In this document: positions 9,655 to 29,018 of the stretch, one piece after another | Layout of the letters: every line of letters begins with the position of its first letter | Numbering within the stretch: position 1 is the stretch's first letter | Position numbers and translations under genes: made by a program | Notes under the pieces: model-generated | Seen by the model: the letters and a program-made list of their open reading frames with translations, nothing else | What the model was told of the DNA's origin: nothing | The model's database searches: none | Origin: an uncultured Pseudomonadota bacterium | Lineage (GTDB): Bacteria > Oederibacteriota > Muellerivitia > Muellerivitales > Muellerivitaceae | Reading direction: 5' to 3' | DNA: 64,000 bases | Assembly (NCBI GenBank): GCA_963836235.1 | Contig: CAWIIP010000004.1 | Location: forward strand, 32,001-96,000

Positions 9655-11823
9655 ATGTCATCATCCCGCAAGAAGGTTGCCTTATCCATCGGGAAGGAAG
9701 TTTCTCCCGTCGAGAATTATATGTCTGAACCTGGACATGAAATCTTCGGATCTCTCGTATTTACCGACGCGGTCCAAAAGCAGTATTTGTCGAAGGATGT
9801 TTATAAAAAACTGCGGGCAACAACCATCAAAGGTGAACCGCTCGATCCTTCCATCGCTGACCAGGTAGCACAAGGCATGAAGGAATGGGCCTTGTCTCAT
9901 GGCGCAACCCACTACACCCACTGGTTCATTCCCTTGACTGGTTTGGGAGCGGAAAAACATGATTCCTTTCTGGAGTACACAGCTGATGGAGGAGCCATCG
10001 CCGAGTTTTCTGGTAAAACCCTCATCAAGGGTGAGCCGGACGCTTCCTCCTTTCCCTCGGGCGGAACCCGTTCCACTTTTGAGGCCCGGGGTTACACGGC
10101 CTGGGATCCGACTTCTTCCGCTTTCATTCAAAAAGAATTGAACGGCGCCACTTTGACTATCCCCACGGCTTTCGTCAGCTATACCGAAGAAGCTTTGGAC
10201 TTCAAGACCCCGCTTCTACGCTCGGTGGAAAGCCTCTCAGTCCAGGCCCTGCGCCTTCTGCGTCTGTTCGGCAATAAAACCGCCAAGCATGTGTTCACCA
10301 ATATGGGGCCGGAGCAGGAATATTTCCTCATCGATCGCAAATATTATGAACTTCGCCCCGACTTGATCGCTGGCGGACGCACTCTTTTCGGCGCTCCCCC
10401 CTACCGGGGGCAGGAATTGGAGGACCATTATTTCGGGTCCATCCGTGAGCGCATCCTGGCCTACATGATGGACCTGGATCGGGAACTGTGGCGGCTGGGC
10501 ATCCTGTCCAAGACGCGTCATAACGAAGTGGCGCCCGCTCAATTTGAGATGGCGCCCCTTTATGAGAAATCCTCCATCGCGGCGGACCATAACATGATCG
10601 TCATGGAGCTTATGCGTAAAGTGGCCTTGCGGCACGGCCTGGTCTGCCTCCTGCACGAGAAGCCATTCGCGGGCATCAACGGCAACGGCAAGCACAACAA
10701 CTGGTCCATGGGGACCGACGAGGGCGAGAACCTGTTGGAACCGGGAACCACCCCGCACGCCAACGCCCAGTTCCTGGCCTTCTTGGTGGCCATCATCGCA
10801 GCAGTGGACAAGTATGCCGAGCTGCTTCGCATCGCAATCGCAGGTCCCGGCAACGACCACCGCCTGGGAGCCAACGAGGCCCCGCCAGCCATCATCTCCA
10901 TCTTCCTGGGTGATCAATTGCAGGATATAGTCGACCAGTTGGAAAAAGGGCCGGCTTCCTCCAGCAAGTCGGGCGGAACCATGCAACTAGGGGTTTCCAC
11001 CCTGCCCCCCCTTCCCAAAGATGCCACGGACCGTAACCGTACCTCGCCTTTCGCCTTCACGGGCAACAAGTTCGAGTTCCGCGCAGTCGGGTCCTCGGCC
11101 GCCATTTATTGGCCCAACGCAGTGCTGAATACCATCGTGGCGGAGTCCATCGATCGCATCGCCATCGAATTGGAAAAGGGCGGAGACTTGAATAAGACCT
11201 TGGCCACTATTCTTCAAAGGGAACTCAAGGAACACAAAAAAGTGCTCTTCAACGGCAATGGTTACGCCGCCGATTGGCACGCCGAGGCCCAAAAGAGGGG
11301 CCTGCCGAACCTCAAGACCACGGTGGACGCCCTCAAGGCCATGCCGAAAAAAGAATACAAGGAGCTTTTCGCCAAGTACAAGGTCCTTAACGAGAAGGAG
11401 TATGAGGCTCGCGAGGAAATCATGTGGGAAAGGTACGTGAAGATCACGAATATCGAGGCCGGTGCCACGGTTGACATCGCCCAGAACCAGATCCTGCCGG
11501 CGGTTCTCAAGTACCAGAGCGAACTGGCGGAGACCATCCAGGCCACCTCGGCTGTGGTGAAAACCGGCCAAAAGGGCCAAACGGCCCTGCTGGAGGAAGT
11601 CACCAAAGGCGCCAGCGAGTTGTATGAGGCTGCTATGGCCCTGGACAAGCTCATTGAAAGCGCGAACAGCGGGTCCAGCCTGCACCAGATCGCCGCTTCC
11701 TTCAAGGACTCGGTCATCCCGGGTATGCTGAGGGTCCGAGAAATCGCCGACTGGCTGGAAGGCCTGGTGAGCGATGATCTCTGGCCCCTGCCGAAGTACC
11801 GGGAGATGCTGTTCCAGTACTAA
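9655..11823 (+). CDS. glnN: Glutamine synthetase type III
   Basis: 722 aa; [64 protein letters not shown]. Confidence 0.96.
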
Positions 11824-19412: not shown

Positions 19413-22178
19413 ATGATCCTCCCTTATAAGACAATTTATATGGCGGTCTCAGCGATCTTGGTTTTATTTCTCCATGACCAGTCTTTTCTCCGGAAGGTCC
19501 CTCAGAACTCGGCCCTTTTACGAACCAGTAAGGCGGGTTACGGCCAGATCCCCCTCGCCTTTGAGGCCAACCAGGGCCAAACCGATCCTTCCGTTAGGTT
19601 CCTTGCCCTTGGAAATGGTTACAGCTTGTTCCTCACTCCCACCCAGGCGGTTTGGGCCCTGCGGGACCGCCCCCGTCGGACGAGGTCCCGTTCCGCTTCC
19701 CGGACTTCTCCCGAAAAAACAGACTATCTTTGGATGAGTCTCAAGGGGGCTGACCCCAGGTGCCGGGCCGAAGGTTTGGGAGAATTGCCGGGGAAGAGTA
19801 ATTACTTGGTGGGCCAGGACCCTTCCCGGTACAAGACCAATACCCCCCAATTTGCGAAGGTCAAATTCACCGGTGTCTATCCCCACATCGACCTTTTCTA
19901 TTACGGTTCCACCGGGGGAAAACTTGAGTACGATTTCGTCCTCCAACCCCACGCCCGCCCTGAGGACATCCGTCTCCAGTTCCGCGGCGCCAAGAAGTTG
20001 TGGTTGAGGGATGATGGCAGCTTGGAAGTGGCGATGGGCCTCAAAAAAATGTCGTTCCAACTTCCGGCGGTCTATCAGAGTGGCACCCAAGGCAGGGAAA
20101 CCTTGAAGGGGCGGTTCGTGCTGCGGTCGGGGAATGAGGTGGGGTTCGAAGTGGCGGGTTACGACCCCTCAAGGCCCCTGGTCATCGACCCAACCTTTAC
20201 CCTGGTTTATTCCACTTATATCGGTTCCACCGCCGCTTACTTTCATAACGAGCTCGCCGACTTTTGCGTGGACCCTTCCGGGTTCACTTATTTGGTCGAA
20301 CCGGGTCCTGGCGGTTTTCCTTATCCCACCACCTCGGGGGCTTTTCAAACGACGGACAAGGGCACGATCAACGCCATCATCGTGAAATTGAACCAAGCCG
20401 GGTCGGCGTTGGTTTACGCGACCTACCTGGGGGGATCCGTGGAGGATCAGTGCTTTTCCATCGCCGCTGACGCCGGGGGGAACGCCTACCTGACCGGTTT
20501 CGCCGGCTCGTCCGATTTTCCGACAACGCCGGGGGCCTACCGGGCCGGCCCGCCTGTCGGCCCCGACGCCTTCGTTGCCAAGCTCAATCCCACCGGGACC
20601 GCGTTGGTCTATTCCACCTTGCTCGGCGGGTCAAGCCAGGACGTAGGGAGGAGCATCGTGGTGGACAGTGACGGGGACGCCTATGTGGGCGGGTACACCC
20701 AATCCACCGATTTTCCCACCACCTCCGGAGCCTTTATGACCACGAAACCCAGCGGGAGCCAATCCCTTTTCGTCACGAAAGTAAATCCCACGGGGACCGC
20801 CTTGGTCTATTCCACCTACTTGGGTGGATCGGGGAACGACCAGTTGGACGCCCTCGCAATCGATGGGTCGGGCGACGCATATGTGACAGGCATCACTTCT
20901 TCCACGGATTTTCCCACGACATCGGGAGCCTACCGGACCACCGCCAGCGGCAGTTCGGATGCCTTCGTGACCAAGCTCAACCCCACGGGTACCGCTTTAG
21001 CCTATTCCACCTACTTGGGGGGCAGCCAGCAGGACGAAGGCCAAGCCATCGCAGTGGATGCCTCAGGTAGCGCCTATGTGACCGGTTATACGGCCTCCGC
21101 GGACTTTCCCACGACCCCGGGTGTTTTGGGCCTGAGCCTGACGGGGACTGAGAATTGTTTCGTGACGAAATTGAGTCCCGCGGGGAACAGCCTAGTCTTC
21201 TCCACTTATTTGGGGGGAAAAACGGTTGATCTGGGTTACGGCATCACCGTGGATGGGTCGGGCCAGGTCTATGTGGGGGGGCTCACGGGCTCGTCGGATT
21301 TCCCCACAACCCCAGGCGCGCTCAAAACGACCTTTATCAGCTCCACGACCTTTTTTTCGCTCCTGAACCCTACGGCCACTTCACTGCTCTATTCAACCTT
21401 TTGGGGAGGGTCCGGTGGCGAGGATGACGGGGCACGGATCGGATTGGATTCTTCCGGCGCCGTCTATCTGGGAGGGGGCACCTATACCAGCGATTACCCC
21501 ACGACTGCGGGGGCTTACGAAACAACTCATGCCGCCGATAGCGAGGACCTTTTCGTGGCCAAACTGGTGATGGGGATCACCAATTCCCCCACCGCGACCA
21601 ACAGCCCGTCACCCACACCAACCCTTTCCAGCACGGCTACTCCGACCTCGACCGGCAACGCCACCAACACCCCCACCTTCACTCTTACTTCTACCTTCAC
21701 CTCATCCATTACCGACACACCCACTCCGACCGGCAGCTGGACCTCAACTCCCACCGTGACCGAGACCTTTACCCCGACAGGGAGCTACACCTTGACCTTC
21801 ACCCAAACTCCCACGGCTACCTTGACCCCTACGCCGACCAATACACCGGCCCTCACTTTCACACCCACCGGCACGTCCACCCTGGGATCGTCTTCCTTTG
21901 GTTTCTGTCCCCCCTATCCCAACCCCTCGGATGGTTCGTCACCGGTTTCTTTTTGCGTCGATGTGCCCGAAGGGTCCTTGGTCGATCTGGGCATTTACAC
22001 CACGGCTTTCCGGAAGATCTACGGCCGCCACCCCACTCTTTCGGGCCAAAACTTCCTGAATTGGAACTTGAGGGATGATTGGGGGACTCCCGCAGCCAAC
22101 GGGGTTTATTACCTGAAAATTCAAGTTACGGGAATCCAACCCGTGACCAAGATCTTCAAAATACTGGTTATCCGTTAG
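19413..22178 (+). CDS. Secreted SBBP beta-propeller repeat protein with Thr/Pro linker and T9SS/FlgD-like C-terminal domain
   Basis: FEANQGQTD N-domain, LVYSTYLGG...DFPTT repeats, TPT linker, PYPNP...NGVYY...KILVIR. Confidence 0.88.
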   Translation: MILPYKTIYMAVSAILVLFLHDQSFLRKVPQNSALLRTSKAGYGQIPLAFEANQGQTDPSVRFLALGNGYSLFLTPTQAVWALRDRPRRTRSRSASRTSPEKTDYLWMSLKGADPRCRAEGLGELPGKSNYLVGQDPSRYKTNTPQFAKVKFTGVYPHIDLFYYGSTGGKLEYDFVLQPHARPEDIRLQFRGAKKLWLRDDGSLEVAMGLKKMSFQLPAVYQSGTQGRETLKGRFVLRSGNEVGFEVAGYDPSRPLVIDPTFTLVYSTYIGSTAAYFHNELADFCVDPSGFTYLVEPGPGGFPYPTTSGAFQTTDKGTINAIIVKLNQAGSALVYATYLGGSVEDQCFSIAADAGGNAYLTGFAGSSDFPTTPGAYRAGPPVGPDAFVAKLNPTGTALVYSTLLGGSSQDVGRSIVVDSDGDAYVGGYTQSTDFPTTSGAFMTTKPSGSQSLFVTKVNPTGTALVYSTYLGGSGNDQLDALAIDGSGDAYVTGITSSTDFPTTSGAYRTTASGSSDAFVTKLNPTGTALAYSTYLGGSQQDEGQAIAVDASGSAYVTGYTASADFPTTPGVLGLSLTGTENCFVTKLSPAGNSLVFSTYLGGKTVDLGYGITVDGSGQVYVGGLTGSSDFPTTPGALKTTFISSTTFFSLLNPTATSLLYSTFWGGSGGEDDGARIGLDSSGAVYLGGGTYTSDYPTTAGAYETTHAADSEDLFVAKLVMGITNSPTATNSPSPTPTLSSTATPTSTGNATNTPTFTLTSTFTSSITDTPTPTGSWTSTPTVTETFTPTGSYTLTFTQTPTATLTPTPTNTPALTFTPTGTSTLGSSSFGFCPPYPNPSDGSSPVSFCVDVPEGSLVDLGIYTTAFRKIYGRHPTLSGQNFLNWNLRDDWGTPAANGVYYLKIQVTGIQPVTKIFKILVIR

Positions 22179-22186
22179 GAACATGA

Positions 22187-24835
22187 ATGAAAAAACATCC
22201 AAGATCATTTGAATTTTACCGGCTCTTTTCTGTCATTTTTTTAGTTGGCGGATTTGTGGTCGTAATTTTTGATCCGAACCTTCTCGCCGGTATTTTTCAT
22301 CGGGCCGCTGCCCTGAAATCGACTCGACAAGATTCTTCCGGGGAAATGAAATTTAAAAGATCCTACGGCCAACTCCCATTGATCTTCGAACCCAACGAAG
22401 GCCAAACCGATCCCCGGGTGAGCTATTTCTGCCGGGGCGCGGGATACAGCCTATTCTTGACCCCGAAAGAAGCGGTGCTCACCTTAAGACAACCCGAACC
22501 ACCATCCCGCCATCCGGGCCGCGAGAAGGGCCAGGCCTTGCCTCTCGAACCGTCCCGGGTCCGGGAGAGGGTGTTGCGCATCAAGTTAAAAGAGGCCCAA
22601 TCGCCTTCCTCGGTGGAGGGGATGGATAAATTGGAAGGTACCAGCAATTATTTCATCGGCAAGGACCCCCGAAAATGGCGCACAGGGATCCCCCAATTCG
22701 CCAGGGTGAAATTAAAGGATGTTTATCCCGGCATCGACATCGTTTATTACGGCAACGGGGGAAAATTGGAGTATGACTTCGTGGTAAAACCGGGGGCCGA
22801 TCCGAGGTCGATCCAGATGGCTTTTGAGGGCACCCAAGGGATGAAGTTGGTCGATGGCGATTGGGTTTTGAAAGCGGGGAAAGACCAACTGGTTTTTAAA
22901 GCGCCCGTGATCTATCAGCCGCAAGGGGGCTCGCGCAGAAGGGTGGAGGGACGGTATGTGCGGATGGGGCCTCATCAGCTGGGTTTCCAGGTGGATGGCT
23001 ATGACCCGACGCGAACGCTTGTCATCGATCCCGTATTAGATTATTCGACCTATTTGAGCGGGAGCGCCTCGAACCAGAGCTTCGGGATCGCGGTGAACTC
23101 CAGCGGAAATGCTTATGTGATCGGACAGGTTACTTCCATTACTTTCCCAACGACGGCAGGGGCCTTCCAGACCGCCCCCCCTGGCGGTACCTCGGACGCT
23201 TTTGTCTCGGAGCTGAACGCCGCCGGGACGGGGTTGGTCTATTCGACCTATTTGGGCGGGACGGGGATAGAGGGCGCCATGAAGATTGCGGTGGACGCCG
23301 CGGGAAATGCCTATGTGGTGGGAGTCACCAGTTCCACCGATTTTCCCATCACGCCCGGAGCCTTCCAAACGGCCTCCACGGGGGTTACCTATAACATTTA
23401 TTTGACCAAATTGAATCCCGCCGGGACCGCCCTCGTTTATTCCACGTACTTTGGCGGGAATGCCGACACGCAATGCGACGCCCTCGCAGTCGACAACACC
23501 GGGCAGGCTTATATCGGCGGCTTTTCCAGCGCCACCAATTTACCCACAACGGCCGGCGCCTATCAAAGCACGATGAAGGGAAGTACCAACGCCTATGTGG
23601 CAAAGTTCAACGCCCTCGGGACGGCTTTGGTGTACATGACTTATCTGGGAGGGACCAATTATGACGGTCTTTCTGGGATCGCGTTGGACCCTTCGGGGGA
23701 CGCTTATCTCTGCGGCGGGACCCGCTCCGTCGATTTCCCCACGACCGCCGGAGTTTTTAAATCGGCTTATGGCGGGGGAATCAATGATGGCTTTGTGGCC
23801 AAGTTGAATCCCACTGGTACTGCCTTGTTGTACTCTACTTACCTGGGTGGAAGCGGGAACGACAGCATCTCCGGTATCAAAATAGATTCTTCGGGAGACG
23901 CCTATATTGCCGGCGGCACCACTTCCGTGAATTTCCCCACCACCGCGGGCGCTTATCAAGGCGCGTTGGCGGGAAATACCAACGTCTTCATCACTGAATT
24001 AAACCCAACAGCCACTTCATTGATTTACTCCACCCTCCTGGGAGGCAGTAATAATGATGCGGCCTATGGAATGGATATGGATTCCTCCTATAGGGTCTAC
24101 GTGACGGGGCAGATCAATTCGGTGAATTTTCCAACCACCGCGGGGGCGTTCCAAACGGTTTTTGGGGGTTTCGACGATTCCTTTATCAGTGTCATGAACC
24201 CGACCGGCACGGCCTTGGTCTATTCCAGTTACCTCGGAGGGAGCAGTGAGGACGTGGGCTATGGCATTGCCTTGGACCCGGCCGGGAACGCTTATCTGGC
24301 AGGCTATACCTGGTCGACCGACTTTCCCACGACGGCGGGCGCTTACCAACCGGTGTACGGCGGCGGAAGTTCCAACGCCTTTGCCGCTAAATTCGACGTG
24401 ACGACCTTTAGCATCCCCGCCATCACCGCAACCCCGACCTCCACTCCGACGAGTAGTCCAACTTCAACGCCCACACCCTTGGTTACCAGCACGCCCACTT
24501 CCACACCGACCTTTACGCCGACCGCCCTGATGACCAACACGCTCACACCCGGTTCAACTTCAGGCTGTGTGATCCATGTTTGGCCCAATCCTTATAGCTT
24601 GAAATACGCCCATGACCATGCCTTGAAGTTCAGCTGCCTGCCCGCGAACGCCGAGGTTTATATCTATACGGTATCGGGCGAGTTGGTGGCCCAGTTCGGC
24701 CCCTCCGGCGACCCCACCGAATGGAAAGATGGGAAAAATCTCAATGGGGCCAGTGTTTCCTCCGGCATTTATTATTACGCTATTCAGAATGGCCAAACCC
24801 TCTTGCAACGGGGTAAGTTTTTGATCACACCTTAA
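22187..24835 (+). CDS. Secreted SBBP beta-propeller repeat protein (paralogue) with Thr/Pro linker and C-terminal sorting-like domain
   Basis: FEPNEGQTD, repeated YSTYLGG, WPNP...IYTVSGELV...SGIYYY. Confidence 0.88.
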   Translation: MKKHPRSFEFYRLFSVIFLVGGFVVVIFDPNLLAGIFHRAAALKSTRQDSSGEMKFKRSYGQLPLIFEPNEGQTDPRVSYFCRGAGYSLFLTPKEAVLTLRQPEPPSRHPGREKGQALPLEPSRVRERVLRIKLKEAQSPSSVEGMDKLEGTSNYFIGKDPRKWRTGIPQFARVKLKDVYPGIDIVYYGNGGKLEYDFVVKPGADPRSIQMAFEGTQGMKLVDGDWVLKAGKDQLVFKAPVIYQPQGGSRRRVEGRYVRMGPHQLGFQVDGYDPTRTLVIDPVLDYSTYLSGSASNQSFGIAVNSSGNAYVIGQVTSITFPTTAGAFQTAPPGGTSDAFVSELNAAGTGLVYSTYLGGTGIEGAMKIAVDAAGNAYVVGVTSSTDFPITPGAFQTASTGVTYNIYLTKLNPAGTALVYSTYFGGNADTQCDALAVDNTGQAYIGGFSSATNLPTTAGAYQSTMKGSTNAYVAKFNALGTALVYMTYLGGTNYDGLSGIALDPSGDAYLCGGTRSVDFPTTAGVFKSAYGGGINDGFVAKLNPTGTALLYSTYLGGSGNDSISGIKIDSSGDAYIAGGTTSVNFPTTAGAYQGALAGNTNVFITELNPTATSLIYSTLLGGSNNDAAYGMDMDSSYRVYVTGQINSVNFPTTAGAFQTVFGGFDDSFISVMNPTGTALVYSSYLGGSSEDVGYGIALDPAGNAYLAGYTWSTDFPTTAGAYQPVYGGGSSNAFAAKFDVTTFSIPAITATPTSTPTSSPTSTPTPLVTSTPTSTPTFTPTALMTNTLTPGSTSGCVIHVWPNPYSLKYAHDHALKFSCLPANAEVYIYTVSGELVAQFGPSGDPTEWKDGKNLNGASVSSGIYYYAIQNGQTLLQRGKFLITP

Positions 24836-24838
24836 CGT

Positions 24839-24870
24839 GTTGTCCACGACGGGGACCCGTCGTGGACAAG
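24839..24870. repeat. 32-bp palindromic site P1
   Basis: GTTGTCCACGAC-GGGGACCC-GTCGTGGACAAG; starts 3 bp after the SBBP stop codon. Confidence 0.9.
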
Positions 24871-24919: not shown

Positions 24920-25201
24920 ATGATCCGAAGCTTTAAGGGTAAAGAAACCGAGCTTATCTTCAACCGGACTTTTTCCCATCGGCTGCCCCACGACATTCAA
25001 ACGGTGGCCTTTCGGAAACTCCGAATGATAAGCCGGGCGGTATCCTTAAACGATTTGAGGGTTCCCCCAGCAAACCATTTGGAAGCCCTGCACGGGAACC
25101 GTAAGGGCCAACACAGCATTCGGATTAATAATCAATGGCGTGTTTGTTTTGAATGGCGCGCGGGGGACGCACATAACGTTGAGATCGTGGATTACCACTA
25201 G
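24920..25201 (+). CDS. higB: HigB-family (RelE-like) toxin
   Basis: MIRSF...DLRVPPANHLEALHGNRKGQHSIRINNQWRVCFEW...VEIVDYH. Confidence 0.94.
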   Translation: MIRSFKGKETELIFNRTFSHRLPHDIQTVAFRKLRMISRAVSLNDLRVPPANHLEALHGNRKGQHSIRINNQWRVCFEWRAGDAHNVEIVDYH

Positions 25202-25209
25202 GAGGAAAA

Positions 25210-25512
25210 ATGAAGACAGCTAAAATTCCGCCGCTACATCCAGGCGAAGTTCTTCAAGAGGAGTTTTTAGCTCCCATGAAGATCAGCCAAAATAAGCTGG
25301 GTCAGGACCTGGGGGTCCCTCCCCGCCGCATCAATGAAATCATCCAGGGGAAAAGGGGCATCACAGCCGATACCGCCTTGCGCTTGGCCAGGTATTTCAA
25401 CATGTCCCCCCAATTTTGGCTTGGCTTGCAAATGGATTTTGAGTTGGACCAGGAAGCAGACCATCTTGCATCCCGCCTCAAAAAGGAAGTCCACGTCTAC
25501 CAGGCTGTTTAA
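25210..25512 (+). CDS. higA: HigA-family HTH antitoxin
   Basis: HPGEVLQEEFL, RINEIIQGKRGITADTALRLARYF, FWLGLQ. Confidence 0.94.
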   Translation: MKTAKIPPLHPGEVLQEEFLAPMKISQNKLGQDLGVPPRRINEIIQGKRGITADTALRLARYFNMSPQFWLGLQMDFELDQEADHLASRLKKEVHVYQAV

Positions 25513-25526
25513 GATCGGTTCCATGG

Positions 25527-25558
25527 GTTGTCCACGACGGGGACCCATCGTGGACAGG
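25527..25558. repeat. 32-bp palindromic site P2
   Basis: GTTGTCCACGAC-GGGGACCC-ATCGTGGACAGG. Confidence 0.9.
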
Positions 25559-25608: not shown

Positions 25609-26742
25609 ATGAATCGACTTTTCCTTATCGCGGTAATCCTCTTGATCGGCCTGTTCCCCCTGGCTTGCCAGAAGACCTATACGTTAGGCCCTCTGAGCGT
25701 TCCAACTCCCGCTCCACCTCCCACCAAAACCTTTACCGCCACAGGTTCGCCTACCCCCACCTGTAGCGGGAAAATCGTTTCGACCTTGGCGGGGTCCGGG
25801 TTGGTTGGAGCCGTCAACGCCACTGGTACAGCCGCGTCGTTCAATTTCCCTACGGGGGCCGCCGTGGATTCTTCCGGGAATGTTTATGTGGCGGATACTT
25901 ACAACAACCTGATACGGGAAATCACGTCAGGTGGGGTAGTAACGACCTTGGCCGGGTCCGGGGCGATTGGAGCCGTCAACGCCACCGGGACCGCCGCGTC
26001 CTTTCATACTCCCTACGCCCTGGCGGTGGATTCTTCGGGCAATGTTTATGTCGCGGATACCATTAACAACCTGATCCGGATGATAACCCCCGGTGGGGTG
26101 GTGACCACCTTGGCCGGAGGCGGGCCTTGTTGCGCGGTAAACGCAACGGGAACCGCCGCTTCGTTCAACGGACCTTGGGGAATAGCCGTCGATGCTTCCG
26201 GAAACGTTTATGTGGCGGATCAAACCAACGACCTCATCCGGAAAATTACCCCGGGCGGCGTCGTGACGACCCTGGCGGGATCGGGTGCCTGGGGGGCCAC
26301 CAACGGAACCGGAACCGCCGCGTCTTTTTATAATCCCGTTGGACTCGCGGTCGATTCTTCGGGGAATGTTTATGTCGCGGATTCTTACAACGACATGATC
26401 CGGAAAATCACTCCGGGAGGCGTGGTGACGACCCTGGCGGGGTCCGGGTCAGCCGGCTCGGCCGACGGAATCGGGACCGCGGCGTCTTTCAATATGCCCC
26501 TTGGGGTCGCGGTGGATTCCTCCGGAAATGTTTACGTGACGGACGCGTGGAACAACCTGATCCGTGAAATTACCCCAGGGGGCGTGGTGACGACCCTGTT
26601 GGGAAAAGTGGGGGTCGCGGGTTCAACCAACGGAAATTGCTACCAGGCCCTTTTCAACCAGCCTGATGGAATCGCGGTGGATTCCTCCGGGAAAATCTAC
26701 ATCGCGGACCAGGACAACAACCTGATCCGGGAAATCCAATAA
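25609..26742 (+). CDS. NHL-repeat beta-propeller lipoprotein
   Basis: Lipobox PLAC; six AVDSSGNVYVAD..NNLIR.IT repeats. Confidence 0.9.
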   Translation: MNRLFLIAVILLIGLFPLACQKTYTLGPLSVPTPAPPPTKTFTATGSPTPTCSGKIVSTLAGSGLVGAVNATGTAASFNFPTGAAVDSSGNVYVADTYNNLIREITSGGVVTTLAGSGAIGAVNATGTAASFHTPYALAVDSSGNVYVADTINNLIRMITPGGVVTTLAGGGPCCAVNATGTAASFNGPWGIAVDASGNVYVADQTNDLIRKITPGGVVTTLAGSGAWGATNGTGTAASFYNPVGLAVDSSGNVYVADSYNDMIRKITPGGVVTTLAGSGSAGSADGIGTAASFNMPLGVAVDSSGNVYVTDAWNNLIREITPGGVVTTLLGKVGVAGSTNGNCYQALFNQPDGIAVDSSGKIYIADQDNNLIREIQ

Positions 26743-26771: not shown

Positions 26772-26803
26772 TCTGTCCACTACGGGGACCCGTCGTGGAC
26801 AAC
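26772..26803. repeat. 32-bp palindromic site P3
   Basis: TCTGTCCACTAC-GGGGACCC-GTCGTGGACAAC. Confidence 0.9.
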
Positions 26804-26812
26804 AAAGAATTG

Positions 26813-26849
26813 CCTGCACATGCCTGTCGCAAAAAGGATAGTGTGCAAC
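26813..26849. repeat. 37-bp direct repeat R1
   Basis: CCTGCACATGCCTGTCGCAAAAAGGATAGTGTGCAAC; identical copies at 27821 and 28778. Confidence 0.97.
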
Positions 26850-26850
26850 C

Positions 26851-27120
26851 GATGCTCTTTTTGATGCTTCGGCACCTTTTGTGAGTGAAGTAGGTAGTGA
26901 TTTGGCCGTTGGCGCATTGGAAGCAGGGGGAGCAGCATTGGCCTCAGTTTCGGGGCCTTTGGCTCCGCTGGTGGAAGAGGGAACACAAGCGCTTGCACCC
27001 CTTGCCTATGTTGCCGGTTCGACCGCGGCATCGGCAGGTTGGAAATATATTCAACAACAAGCCGCTCCCGTAATAAACAATGCGATAAGCACCATTAGTG
27101 GGTGGTTTTCAGGACCGTGA
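26851..27120 (+). pseudogene. 3' gene fragment with an Ala/Gly-rich hydrophobic C-terminus, cut by R1
   Basis: Frame is open from inside R1 (DALFDASAPFVSEVG...GWFSGP*); no convincing RBS/start. Confidence 0.6.
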
Positions 27121-27147
27121 TTTTTCTTTTTCAATTTTAAAGATTAA

Positions 27148-27633
27148 GTGAAGTGGTTTGAAATGAAAAACACAAAAGTTTATGGATCTAAATTCACTGT
27201 TTTGCTCATGGGACTTTTTTTAGGGATGAGCCTTTTTGTTCTTGTGAAGAAATTGGGGGAACCAGATGCCGAAATCACGAAACCAATCTTAATAGTTGTC
27301 TTTGGTCTGTTTTTATTTTTGGTGGCTTTTAATCGAGCATTAACCCCTCGATGGACCTATGACGAGAGTGGAGTCACGATGAAAAACTCATTTAAGCCAA
27401 AAGATGAAAATTTTTGGCCTTGGAGTGAAGTTGTTGGCATTTATAGACGCGCTTATTGGTCGTGGAATTACTACATCGATTTTAAACGCGGGGGTGTCAT
27501 GGTTAGTTTTCTCTGGACTAGCAATCATTTAAGGATTTTAGTGGATGCGGTACATTTTGCACAAAAAAATAACCCAAATGTGGAAATTACACCTTCTGTT
27601 TTGGGAAAAGTTAAAAAATATTTTAACCGATAG
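27148..27633 (+). CDS. AT-rich 2-TM membrane protein with a soluble C-terminal domain (immunity-like)
   Basis: Two hydrophobic helices, then a WTYDESGV...WPWSEV pattern; start GTG 27148 or ATG 27163. Confidence 0.7.
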   Translation: MKWFEMKNTKVYGSKFTVLLMGLFLGMSLFVLVKKLGEPDAEITKPILIVVFGLFLFLVAFNRALTPRWTYDESGVTMKNSFKPKDENFWPWSEVVGIYRRAYWSWNYYIDFKRGGVMVSFLWTSNHLRILVDAVHFAQKNNPNVEITPSVLGKVKKYFNR

Positions 27634-27689
27634 ATATTTTTGAAAAGTAACTTTTGGGCAACAGTTAGTAGATTGAAAGGCGTTTGTTA

Positions 27690-27820
27690 ATGAATGGCGA
27701 AGTTTTTAAAAATTTAAAAAGTGCCAAGAGATTATGGGGCTTATTGCTGTTTCTCACTTTGGGAAACAGCTCAATATCTTTCGCCCAGACAGCCACGCCT
27801 ACCCCCATGCCCACGCCGAC
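27690..27820 (+). pseudogene. 5' gene fragment (signal peptide plus TPTP linker) cut by R2
   Basis: GAAAGG RBS; MNGEVFKNLKSAKRLWGLLLFLTLGNSSISFAQTATPTPMPTP runs into R2 and stops at 27860. Confidence 0.65.
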
Positions 27821-27857
27821 CCTGCACATGCCTGTCGCAAAAAGGATAGTGTGCAAC
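27821..27857. repeat. 37-bp direct repeat R2
   Basis: Identical to R1. Confidence 0.97.
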
Positions 27858-27864
27858 TAACTAA

Positions 27865-28635
27865 TCACTTTTCCGAAGATTTTAATTCATTCAATATTTC
27901 TTTTGATTTCTTTTCCAACTCTTGTCGATTCCCCCTAAGACTCAAGTTCGTTTTATGATATTGTTCAACAGTTTGCTTATATGAAATTCTCAATTTTAAT
28001 CTCTTCTCACGGTTCAAAAAATATTGATCGGCGGTACTTTTCGAACCAAACGTTTTAATTTTGCGATCTTTATACTCTCCATATATTTTGGAGCCCGTTA
28101 TTTTTTTGAATATTTGATCCGTTAATTCGTTTGCGTTTTTCAGACCACCTTTATGCCAAGTCAATTTAGAATAAGTCCCATTAATCATCGCCTCTTCCCT
28201 AATCCATTGACAAAGATCATCAGTTTTACCATCGCCCAATTCGTTTCCTAATTGATCCGCTTTTTCAATTCCCTCTTTTTGTTTTGACTTCACATTCATT
28301 TGATCTATCGGCATACTTTCGGGATTATTGTGTGCACCCATCGAAGTTAGATCGTTGGATAAATCTTTAAGTTTTTTAATTAAAGCCATTTGATCATCAG
28401 TTAAGTTCAACGATGACACCGATATTAAATCTTCATCCACTTTTGGTAAAAAACCGGATGCACTCCAAATCTTTATTGCTCGAATTTTTTCGGCAGACAC
28501 TGGCAAAACCTCAGAAGTAATGGCGGGTGTTTGAGCAATAACCCATCTAATAGGCGCAGCCCAAAGAACCAATATTTCAAAAGCAAAAATCATTTTCCGC
28601 CATTTTTGAAATTTCATCCCTGTTTTGAAATCCAT
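27865..28635 (-). CDS. AT-rich exported helical hypothetical protein
   Basis: 256-aa ORF, signal-like N-terminus (..VIAQT), GGGGGA RBS; stop lies 7 bp from R2. Confidence 0.75.
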   Translation of the reverse strand: MDFKTGMKFQKWRKMIFAFEILVLWAAPIRWVIAQTPAITSEVLPVSAEKIRAIKIWSASGFLPKVDEDLISVSSLNLTDDQMALIKKLKDLSNDLTSMGAHNNPESMPIDQMNVKSKQKEGIEKADQLGNELGDGKTDDLCQWIREEAMINGTYSKLTWHKGGLKNANELTDQIFKKITGSKIYGEYKDRKIKTFGSKSTADQYFLNREKRLKLRISYKQTVEQYHKTNLSLRGNRQELEKKSKEILNELKSSEK

Positions 28636-28652
28636 TACATCCCCCTGATGTG

Positions 28653-28677
28653 GTTTGCCCTAAGCGTTGTCGAAGGG
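28653..28677. repeat. Single REP-like element
   Basis: GTTTGCCCTAAGCGTTGTCGAAGGG resembles the widespread CCCTGAGCTTGTCGAAGGG-type intergenic repeat; only one copy seen here. Confidence 0.35.
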
Positions 28678-28777
28678 TTGGTGTTGTTTAAACGAAGGTG
28701 AGCGAGGTAAAAGCGAAAACTTTTTCAGTTGGACTATATCAAAACGATAAATATTTACTATGTTTAAAGGTAAATGG

Positions 28778-28814
28778 CCTGCACATGCCTGTCGCAAAAA
28801 GGATAGTGTGCAAC
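28778..28814. repeat. 37-bp direct repeat R3
   Basis: Identical to R1 and R2. Confidence 0.97.
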
Positions 28815-28952
28815 GGTTCAAGCTCTTATTCAAAATAATGATGGGAATGGGCGAAAGTGGGGTTTCGGGCCTATTTTAGAAGCCTGAAGAAATCATTTAA
28901 AAGAAAAGCAGTTATGCCATTTTTTGGAAATAAAAGATAATGGCAATATGTA

Positions 28953-28984
28953 GTTGTCCATAGTGGGGACCCTGATTGGACAAC
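28953..28984. repeat. 32-bp palindromic site P4 (degenerate)
   Basis: GTTGTCCATAGT-GGGGACCC-TGATTGGACAAC; outer 8-bp arms and 8-bp core are retained. Confidence 0.85.
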
Positions 28985-29018
28985 CCAATCCCTTCAACCC
29001 GCTATTTGAGGATGTGAG

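Follow-up and report, generated by a model that had tools for sequence, protein, structure and literature searches.

A 37-bp direct repeat, CCTGCACATGCCTGTCGCAAAAAGGATAGTGTGCAAC, occurs three times in a 64,000-nt stretch of DNA from an uncultured bacterium (positions 32001-96000 of contig C4 of genome G000, G000:C4:32001-96000; hereafter the window). [quoted passage not shown] We propose more tentatively, at a little less than an even chance in our judgement, that this is a working Cas1-Cas2 'gene-capture array' with no RNA-guided interference, which stores kilobase-sized DNA of neighbours and mobile elements at the 37-bp repeat. The genome (3.97 Mb in five contigs, 99.4% complete) has its only cas1 gene on another contig, C1, where an inspection of the genes beside the other repeat copies, proposed in the initial annotation of the window, located cas1 and cas2 directly before a 37-mer.

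The three copies in the window are exact matches on the + strand, at 26813..26849 (R1), 27821..27857 (R2) and 28778..28814 (R3), and R1 opens an orphan array, which lacks adjoining cas genes. Between them lie two spacers, S1 (26850..27820, + strand, 971 bp, 41.7% GC), which appears as a captured foreign-DNA fragment, and S2 (27858..28777, − strand, 920 bp, 35.4% GC), both AT-rich against the 52-55% GC of the array flanks. The repeats, the spacer sizes and the AT-richness are exactly as the initial annotation had described from the letters alone, and no match to the 37-mer, with up to three mismatches permitted, was seen in any of 100 dinucleotide-preserving shuffles of the window. As it had also claimed, none of the copies is flanked by a target-site duplication when 45 nt on each side are compared, and the same holds for the array taken as one block: the longest common word across the flanks is 3-6 nt, and random pairs average 5.3 nt.

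The repeat and the cas1-cas2 module

The Cas1 protein of G000 (346 aa) matches PF01867 (3.2e-68) and TIGR00287 (1.7e-74), and is predicted to be an active enzyme, since its catalytic motifs (tEG, HSER..DLVEEFR) are kept in the alignment with its best structural match, 4n06 (1e-34). It is also related to the solved casposase 6opm (1.3e-25). The 111-aa open reading frame (ORF) that follows cas1 has no Pfam or NCBIfam match and a PADLOC Cas2b match of 1.9e-7. An AlphaFold (AF2) model built from a 12-sequence alignment (predicted local distance difference test score, pLDDT, 77) found Cas2 as its best fold matches in the PDB, and all eight PDB matches with E <= 0.001 were Cas2 or the Cas2 chains of Cas1-Cas2 complexes; judged by this model, the protein is a divergent Cas2. 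A repeat copy stands 27 bp past the cas2 stop in the same orientation, and a palindrome resembling repetitive extragenic palindromes (REP-like) lies 41 nt upstream of cas1, so that the module, of about 1505 bp, consists of REP-like palindrome, cas1, cas2 and repeat. The gene upstream of it codes for a magnesium P-type ATPase. The first spacer downstream of the cas-proximal repeat starts with a candidate HEC-01A/HEC-01B defence pair (AAA_21 and DUF4276; G000 C1:429412-431171, L012:1412-3171; PADLOC 2e-155 and 4e-78).

A profile search of G000 gave no match to RAMP, Cas5d, the Cas12/TnpB TNB domain or canonical Cas2. Effector, Cas6 and RAMP genes were not found, with the Cas9, Cas10 and Cas3 profiles outside the search. 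The likeness to type V-F repeats drawn in the initial annotation thus lost its footing, as there is neither a Cas12/TnpB TNB-domain match nor an Rfam CRISPR-repeat family for the 37-mer, and so did the suggested use as a memory, given the lack of effector genes within that same search. Rfam as a whole holds no family matching the repeat; its eight matches (E 0.63-8.6) are all elsewhere or far below threshold.

G000 contains ten repeat copies, of which nine are exact. Three lie in the window, three on contig C2 with 68 and 1327 bp between them and three on C1 at intervals of about 25 kb, and one solo copy has two mismatches. The unit is 37 nt long, since the C preceding the 36-mer core is kept in 10/10 copies, and beyond these 37 nt the flanks are unrelated. 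Flanks that are never contiguous, the lack of a duplication and the lack of an associated transposase all speak against an insertion sequence (IS), miniature inverted-repeat transposable element (MITE) or REP; a genome-wide dispersed IS or MITE terminus is what the initial annotation had named as the finding that would overturn it. Repeats are identical within an array, and in one cluster nearly always point in the same direction. The + strand of the repeat is predicted to fold into a two-step hairpin (−12.5 kcal/mol, z = −3.1, compared with z = −1.0 for the minus strand). Across 46 distinct variants, whose sequences are related and which were compared with a structure taken from one member, 91% of the cells were paired, compared with 23-57% when the partners were slid by 1-3 columns; compensatory changes are seen at two pairs, 12-29 and 13-28, and three of five measures of support lay above all 500 shuffles.

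The repeat (with at most three mismatches) was detected in 6 of 61 related genomes and was absent from the other 55; all six belong to the family of the window (candidate division FCPU426) and carry 10 (G000), 11 (G012), 2 (G023), 25 (G025), 6 (G026) and 5 (G030) copies. Among the 31 genomes of this family, Cas1 at 94-100% identity is present in five of the six repeat carriers and in none of the 25 repeat-free genomes, and the single carrier without a Cas1 match, G023, is 89% complete. It is hardly credible that the 37-mer is a technical sequence or that the arrays are mis-joins through a short repeat. Most genomes, it is true, are metagenome-assembled genomes (MAGs) of one long-read project, and the window's own three junctions are bridged by no public contig among the Logan contigs of four soil metagenomes, each with a small share of words in common with the window; none of these contigs spans the whole array, and 27916-28723 is uncovered. 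An artefact, however, would not sit at a fixed distance from cas1-cas2 and diverge along with Cas1 across phyla, nor would it appear in unrelated Illumina assemblies (SPAdes-style NODE and JGI (Joint Genome Institute) Ga contigs) and in Logan contigs of other soils while being absent from most of the related genomes searched. The junction check put forward in the initial annotation was therefore answered in part: the window's own junctions lack a covering contig, but junctions of the same type occur in independent short-read and long-read assemblies. In the Logan data, the unitig of the 37-nt repeat has about tenfold the depth of its neighbours.

Outside the family, Cas1 homologues of 59-72% identity were found in MAGs labelled Patescibacteria, Saccharibacteria, Taylorbacteria or 'uncultured bacterium', which come from other projects and assemblers than the FCPU426 MAGs. 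In these Patescibacteria-type loci a cas2-like gene follows cas1 wherever one could be called, and a related 37-mer occupies the same place after cas2 in nine of ten loci; in the tenth, L054, a partial Cas1 match is followed by two repeats at a distance of about 2.3 kb downstream. For this set the repeats have the consensus CCTGCAyA-N-GTCGCAmAAAGGA-NN-TTGTGCAAC. In three of them (L053, with the repeat at 11333-11369, L048 and L051) cas1-cas2 and a single repeat are followed by ordinary genes such as PNPase, and such single-repeat loci may be arrays in an empty ground state. In JGI metagenomes, a motif scan collected 60 contigs with 69 repeats of about 40 variants; full cas1 and/or cas2 genes lie upstream in six contigs and fragments in four more. 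The repeat pattern had no matches in IMG/VR viral contigs. Among 1.84 billion representatives, the Cas2-like family itself accounts for 129 representative clusters at E <= 1e-3 and for 57 at the stricter E <= 1e-10.

The module has spread horizontally. Its nucleotide identity between G000 and G025 or G012, which belong to different genera, is 98.1-98.8% (92-93% in G026 and G030), whereas ordinary orthologues between genera of the family are about 65-80% identical, and the homology extends up to the final base of the repeat and no further. In G025 the module is present in three complete copies and a truncated one. Such numbers would also be produced by a casposon-like selfish element, that is, a module that transposes with passenger DNA and leaves the repeats as target-site duplications of serial transposition, with no benefit to the host. 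The relationship of Cas1 to casposase 6opm and the occurrence of Cas1 fragments as spacers fit this idea, as does the position of cas1 directly after a tRNA gene (start within about 70 nt) in three of nine Patescibacteria loci scanned (Arg, L046 9879-9953; Gly, L048 9857-9928; Ser, L052 8307-8394); integrated mobile elements often sit beside tRNA genes. We nevertheless regard a selfish element of this kind as very unlikely, since neither terminal inverted repeats nor conserved spacer ends are seen, cas genes are missing from most spacers, the left end of the module is just a common REP-like palindrome, and Cas2, which casposons are not known to carry, is present. In fact, it shares its chemistry with the capture reading that we prefer and differs from it mainly in the beneficiary.

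Spacers as fragments of varied origin

S1 begins and ends inside coding sequence, as had been noted initially. R1 cuts off the 3′ end of a gene (26850..27120, + strand) that is open for 89 codons from the spacer boundary and encodes a Gly/Ala-rich C-terminus; it has no Pfam or PADLOC family, and no longer homologue was found. At the other end, the 5′ end of a gene for a putative secreted protein (27684..27860, + strand; signal peptide and Thr/Pro linker) is cut at 27820, and its frame reads on through R2 to a stop at 27858-27860. Between them lies one complete ORF of 161 aa (27148..27633, + strand), predicted to be a small membrane protein with a bacterial-PH-domain-like region (weak bPH_7 match, E = 0.0018); its language-model neighbours are DUF304/DUF5673-like, and a homologue search returned only the protein itself. 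S2 also has one complete ORF, of 256 aa (27865-28635, − strand), with no Pfam, PADLOC or Atlas match and hence no assigned family, so that the genes of the two spacers do face opposite ways. Since the spacer proteins are without informative homologues, a toxin-plus-immunity reading of S1 is only a guess. The repeat frame that closes the truncated ORF at 27684-27860 reads MPVAKRIVCN, and at G000 C2:916954-917833 (L014) the same frame, with an ATG, runs into a 290-aa RHS/YD-repeat fragment. A start codon borne by the repeat and driving expression was considered and dropped, as the ATG is not conserved among variants, those of Patescibacteria included.

The DNA of S1 is also found in other places, and its ends differ there. 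The stretch 26893-27780 matches a whole inter-repeat spacer of G025 at 100% identity and in inverted orientation (885-888 bp overlap), the window copy being longer by 43 and 40 bp at its ends, and in Logan soil contigs the S1 DNA is bounded by the repeat at 27083, 27671 (inverted) and 27702. One soil contig follows 27216-27822 at 100% identity and then continues into other sequence with no repeat, which we take as the donor context; R2 therefore really joins unrelated DNAs, as the initial annotation had claimed. All seven S1 boundaries (left 26850, 26893 and 27083; right 27671, 27702, 27780 and 27820) fall outside the 161-aa ORF, and no other S1 gene is left intact in all of the independent copies. 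The donor search, run against 99 genomes of the phylum, yielded only this G025 spacer for S1, and 165 nt at 83% identity in G018 for S2.

To describe the spacers more generally, we pooled 66 inter-repeat intervals, 45 from FCPU426 genomes, seven from L046 (an 876-kb Patescibacteria-like chromosome) and 14 from other contigs. Their lengths range from 68 to 26097 bp, with quartiles of 603 and 2911 bp and a median of 1288 bp, and none of the 66 is 60 bp or shorter. This distribution bears on the idea that the loci are relic short-spacer CRISPR arrays that have lost their effectors, with long 'spacers' arising by later insertion, recombination or rearrangement at the repeats and with Cas1-Cas2 idle or making normal spacers. 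IS200-type and DDE transposase genes within spacers, the mixing of repeat variants, with whole repeat-spacer blocks inside other arrays, one G025 cas1 copy with a stop codon and two truncated cas1 copies, as well as the lack of effector genes in the profile search above, could all be accommodated in this way. Decay would, however, have to remove every CRISPR-sized spacer from two phyla, about 40 repeat variants and independent assemblies. Cas1 and Cas2 are moreover conserved: the catalytic motifs are intact and the identity between genera is 98-100%, which implies that a working module was transferred recently. Repeats are exact within an array and spacers match their donors at 100% identity, which makes the arrays young. 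Finally, insertion into existing spacers cannot yield an internal gene fragment that abuts the repeat on both sides. Relic arrays are thus an unlikely explanation.

The spacers are in general fragments rather than defined cassettes. A 559-bp spacer of G026 is an internal piece of a transposase gene that has at least six copies in G000; one G025 spacer consists of cas1 from residue 103 plus cas2, and cas1 fragments abut repeats in two JGI contigs. The L046 spacers include a block of five genes, fragments of NDK and of CoiA, and a kinase gene that lacks its 5′ part. Within G025, overlapping spacers with staggered ends share 99.6-100% identity, part of the similarity being the conserved end of RHS-type genes. 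Other spacers carry genes for outer-membrane barrels, Nramp, DnaX, a PD-(D/E)XK nuclease, transposases of the IS200 and DDE types and many proteins without an assigned family, and some carry the ends of RHS-type toxin genes. One donor is chromosomal: 7723 bp of a 7.8-kb G025 spacer are 100% identical to the repeat-free segment C2:1355284-1363006 of G000. The orthologues of this segment are 84-85% identical in G001 (same genus) and 65-80% identical in other genera (79% in a congener of G025), and from these comparisons the segment appears native to the family. One genus's array therefore holds fresh chromosomal DNA of another.

Several side observations concern this DNA. A 1.3-kb stretch at G000 C2:1366722-1368000 (L142 16722-18000) is 99% identical to G018 C82:57083-58361, in another genus, and is probably another shared mobile element. 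A 144-aa IS200-type Y1 transposase gene is found in three G025 C3 spacers (61876-64335, 71023-75249 and 393393-396774) and one of G012 (C5 45875-49377), and in two of the four it starts 46-52 nt after the repeat, with no demonstrable link to the latter. That spacer ends are IS200 element ends was rejected, as the boundaries fall in a hairpin loop and 427 nt past tnpA, neither of which is a demonstrable end of an element. A circular cassette, suggested by contig C16 of G023 with repeats near both its ends, was likewise dropped, since the outer flanks differ and C16 is identical to parts of two longer JGI contigs.

A related possibility is that the 37-mer serves as the site of a non-Cas1 recombinase, or of homologous recombination, for circular cassettes, with cas1-cas2 as mere neighbours. 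The uniform direction of the repeats in a cluster agrees with it, as do the ORFs, which mostly run in the direction of the repeats (42 of 49 with a length of 110 aa or more, counted in FCPU426 spacers of 0.4-5 kb and not independent, several being duplicates; in L046 the orientation is mixed), the 161-aa ORF that is whole in every copy of S1, and the RHS-type toxin gene ends, which resemble orphan cassettes of polymorphic-toxin loci. However, none of the eight tyrosine recombinase (PF00589), two serine recombinase and three Y1 transposase genes of G000 lies within 10 kb of a repeat, the nearest recombinase being 10.5 kb away, and the large ORFs tested beside the Patescibacteria modules are all housekeeping genes (10/10; for example PolA, FtsH, PNPase, RNase J and RNase Y). 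Across phyla, the position of the repeat behind cas2 is constant. At 37 bp it falls below the length of all integron attC sites as generally defined, and it has no paired core sites. The same DNA also occurs with different ends and in both orientations, which excludes fixed cassettes with one crossover site. We consider a recombination-site array improbable on these grounds.

The capture reading calls for an enzyme acting on DNA ends, and the spacer ends carry a symmetric signature. The last ~7 nt on either side of the repeat are AT-rich, and once redundant sequences are removed, the third base before the repeat is rarely C (9/104, p = 8e-5) and the third base after it is rarely G (12/127, p = 4e-5). 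Read as the 3′ ends of both strands, C is rare at the third base on each, which is as expected of an enzyme treating both 3′ ends alike. The ends have nothing in common beyond the AT-rich bias, no inverted-repeat pairs bound the spacers, and no donor motif like a protospacer adjacent motif could be derived from the few cases with known donor context.

A proposed capture model and its difficulties

We envisage an adaptation-only, CRISPR-derived system made of the Cas1 integrase, the divergent Cas2 and the hairpin-forming 37-bp repeat, with no interference genes. Cas1-Cas2 would accept free double-stranded DNA of about 70 bp to more than 10 kb and join its two 3′ ends to the two borders of the repeat; gap repair would then duplicate the repeat, each insertion adding one 'spacer' and one repeat. 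Any DNA in the cell could be a donor, whether it comes from related bacteria, from an insertion sequence or from the genes and arrays of the system itself, and selection would retain the pieces with a useful intact gene. The window array would be an orphan served in trans by the C1 cas1-cas2 module of the same genome. The sequences show that repeat and genes go together, how the arrays are built, that the spacers are fragments with varied ends and origins, and that the system has spread horizontally. We infer the integration chemistry, the repeat duplication and the biological role; the chemistry is modelled on known Cas1-Cas2 and casposase reactions. The initial annotation had already proposed an integrase that captures kilobase fragments in trans, and this proposal is supported by the cas1-cas2 pair on another contig, its co-occurrence with the repeat, the long spacers and the recurrence of one donor DNA in different arrays with different ends and orientation, while integration and duplication keep the inferred standing they had.

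Several observations weigh against this model. How the first repeat reaches a new site is left unexplained: the window locus has no cas genes and no leader-like flank. No strain pair differing by one spacer was found, which leaves repeat duplication and growth polarity unproven. Canonical Cas1-Cas2 measures a prespacer of about 33 bp with Cas2 as the ruler, and since Cas2 is retained here it is hard to see how long DNA is accommodated. Spacer ends often cut genes, yet lean to non-coding, AT-rich places: among 74 boundaries of spacers of at least 600 bp, 51% interrupt a frame that is open for 80 codons or more, compared with 72% of random positions from the same DNA (p = 6e-4). Random capture does not predict the co-orientation of ORFs with repeats either, so that selection or a directional mechanism is needed. 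Arrays also mix repeat variants, as in a block of variant-5 repeat, 7.8 kb and variant-5 repeat inside a variant-1 array; recombination between arrays therefore shapes them too, and the mixed blocks suggest re-capture of array pieces or such recombination. Lastly, three spacers of 11984-12145 bp (G025 C3 48671-60720, 77826-89970 and 90008-101991) and two of 24728-26097 bp (G000 C1 380564-405291 and 405329-431425) may be ordinary chromosome between dispersed repeats. The spacers within each of these groups have similar sizes and unrelated sequences, which could reflect a packaging-size or uptake-size limit, or chance.

A repeat-free empty site was not found for the window locus or for the C1 solo-repeat locus in the same-genus G001 or in other relatives, and none could be defined there, because the matches to the locus are only 65-85% identical and scattered. 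The surroundings of the array are native. They comprise two proteins of about 900 aa each with DUF7948 and SBBP beta-propeller regions (19413-24835), followed by a HigB-like toxin and helix-turn-helix antitoxin pair (HigB/HigA; 24920-25512) between two REP-like palindromes, and by a 377-aa NHL-repeat gene (25609-26742) built from tandem units of 162 nt (54 aa) that are 70-86% alike in DNA, as well as a sigma factor. REP-like perfect palindromes of the GTTGTCCACGACGGGGACCC... type stand after successive genes at 24839-24870, 25527-25558, 26772-26803 and 28953-28989. The one at 26772..26803, after the end of the NHL-repeat gene and 9 nt upstream of R1, marks the native left border of the array. 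On the right, an AT-rich trailer (28815..28952, 138 bp, 34.8% GC) lies between R3 and the next palindrome, and may be the remnant of a last spacer without a closing repeat. Promoter-like and terminator-like sites are no commoner than in shuffles.

About 35 copies of the REP-like palindrome occur in G000 (at most five mismatches), 16 of them on contig C4, and the palindrome is dense around the cas loci of G025. We considered whether the pair flanking the window array is a duplication from off-target insertion, and dropped the idea, as the two are just ~69% alike; it is further weakened by REP copies being common near other arrays without touching repeats.

Relation to known systems

The literature searched contains no description of Cas1-Cas2 arrays with kilobase spacers, supplements, which may hold relevant Cas1 clades, lying outside its scope; the available parts of PMC6509639 and PMC12669027 likewise describe no long-spacer Cas1-Cas2 arrays. 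A confirmed capture function would make this a new kind of system. It would provide a living system for testing whether CRISPR adaptation originated from casposon-like transposition, an origin that has been argued from comparative genomics only. Evolutionary models place a reusable-target step between casposons and CRISPR, and the arrays would be the long-sought intermediate of this kind, standing between casposon transposition, with its long DNA and duplicated target, and CRISPR spacer acquisition, in which one repeat is used again and a tandem array results. They would also offer a new route of horizontal gene transfer, exemplified by 7.7 kb of another genus's chromosome at 100% identity. 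For FCPU426 and the reduced-genome Patescibacteria, whose means of gene acquisition and defence are poorly known, this would be a way of acquiring genes independently of homology, analogous to an integron but relying on the chemistry of CRISPR. A small integrase of two proteins that lands on a 37-bp site, and whose cargo is subject to no evident limit in length or requirement in sequence, would further be of practical interest for DNA insertion and recording tools.

With a CRISPR adaptation module the system shares a cas1 gene with catalytic motifs, a Cas2-fold protein and a repeat right after cas2; the 37-bp repeat is direct, partly palindromic, identical within an array and uniform in direction; and the spacers are unrelated foreign or self DNA, some of it from mobile elements, with orphan arrays elsewhere in the genome. 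Of the usual features of a CRISPR locus, cas1, cas2 and a repeat array (repeats of 23-55 bp) are thus present, whereas uniform short spacers (25-70 bp) and, within the profile search above, effectors are not. The spacers here measure 68 bp to 26 kb, are uneven and contain whole genes, in contrast to about 30-40 bp in CRISPR; effector, Cas6 and RAMP genes did not turn up in the profile search; and instead of a long leader there are 27 bp from the cas2 stop to the first repeat.

Integrons and their CALINs (clusters of attC sites lacking integron-integrases) are similar in having tandem gene-sized units, a recurring structured site, mostly co-oriented genes and clusters away from the enzyme gene. 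Their cassettes have fixed ends, and their attC sites are 57-141 bp long with paired R/L core boxes. Here, the enzyme is Cas1-Cas2 and not a tyrosine recombinase: no IntI-type gene with attI adjoins an array, and all eight PF00589 genes of G000 are more than 10 kb from any repeat copy. The site measures 37 bp, and the ends of the units are unfixed and often cut genes. The recombinase-associated acquired interbacterial defence (rAID) arrays of Bacteroidales, which Ross et al. reportedly described in 2019 and which are said to depend on a tyrosine recombinase, have toxin-gene remnants followed by small intact genes, and so resemble the layout of S1 and the RHS fragments in spacers. The difference in recombinase sets them apart from the present arrays, as does S1, which has no detectable toxin or immunity family.

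Casposons are transposons with a solo Cas1, the 'casposase'. As with them, a Cas1-family integrase would insert kilobase DNA and leave direct target duplications on both sides; each spacer does lie between two identical 37-mers, as a 37-bp duplication would look, although a pair of empty and filled sites was not found. Some copies by tRNA genes and the sequence kinship to casposase 6opm add to the resemblance. In contrast to casposons, the inserted DNA has no terminal inverted repeats and Cas2 is present; PolB is absent from the annotated neighbours of the module, among which no search aimed at PolB was made. A fixed 37-bp site is moreover reused in tandem, and the inserted DNA is arbitrary rather than the element itself. 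The system would work most like a casposase reaction aimed repeatedly at one reusable target.

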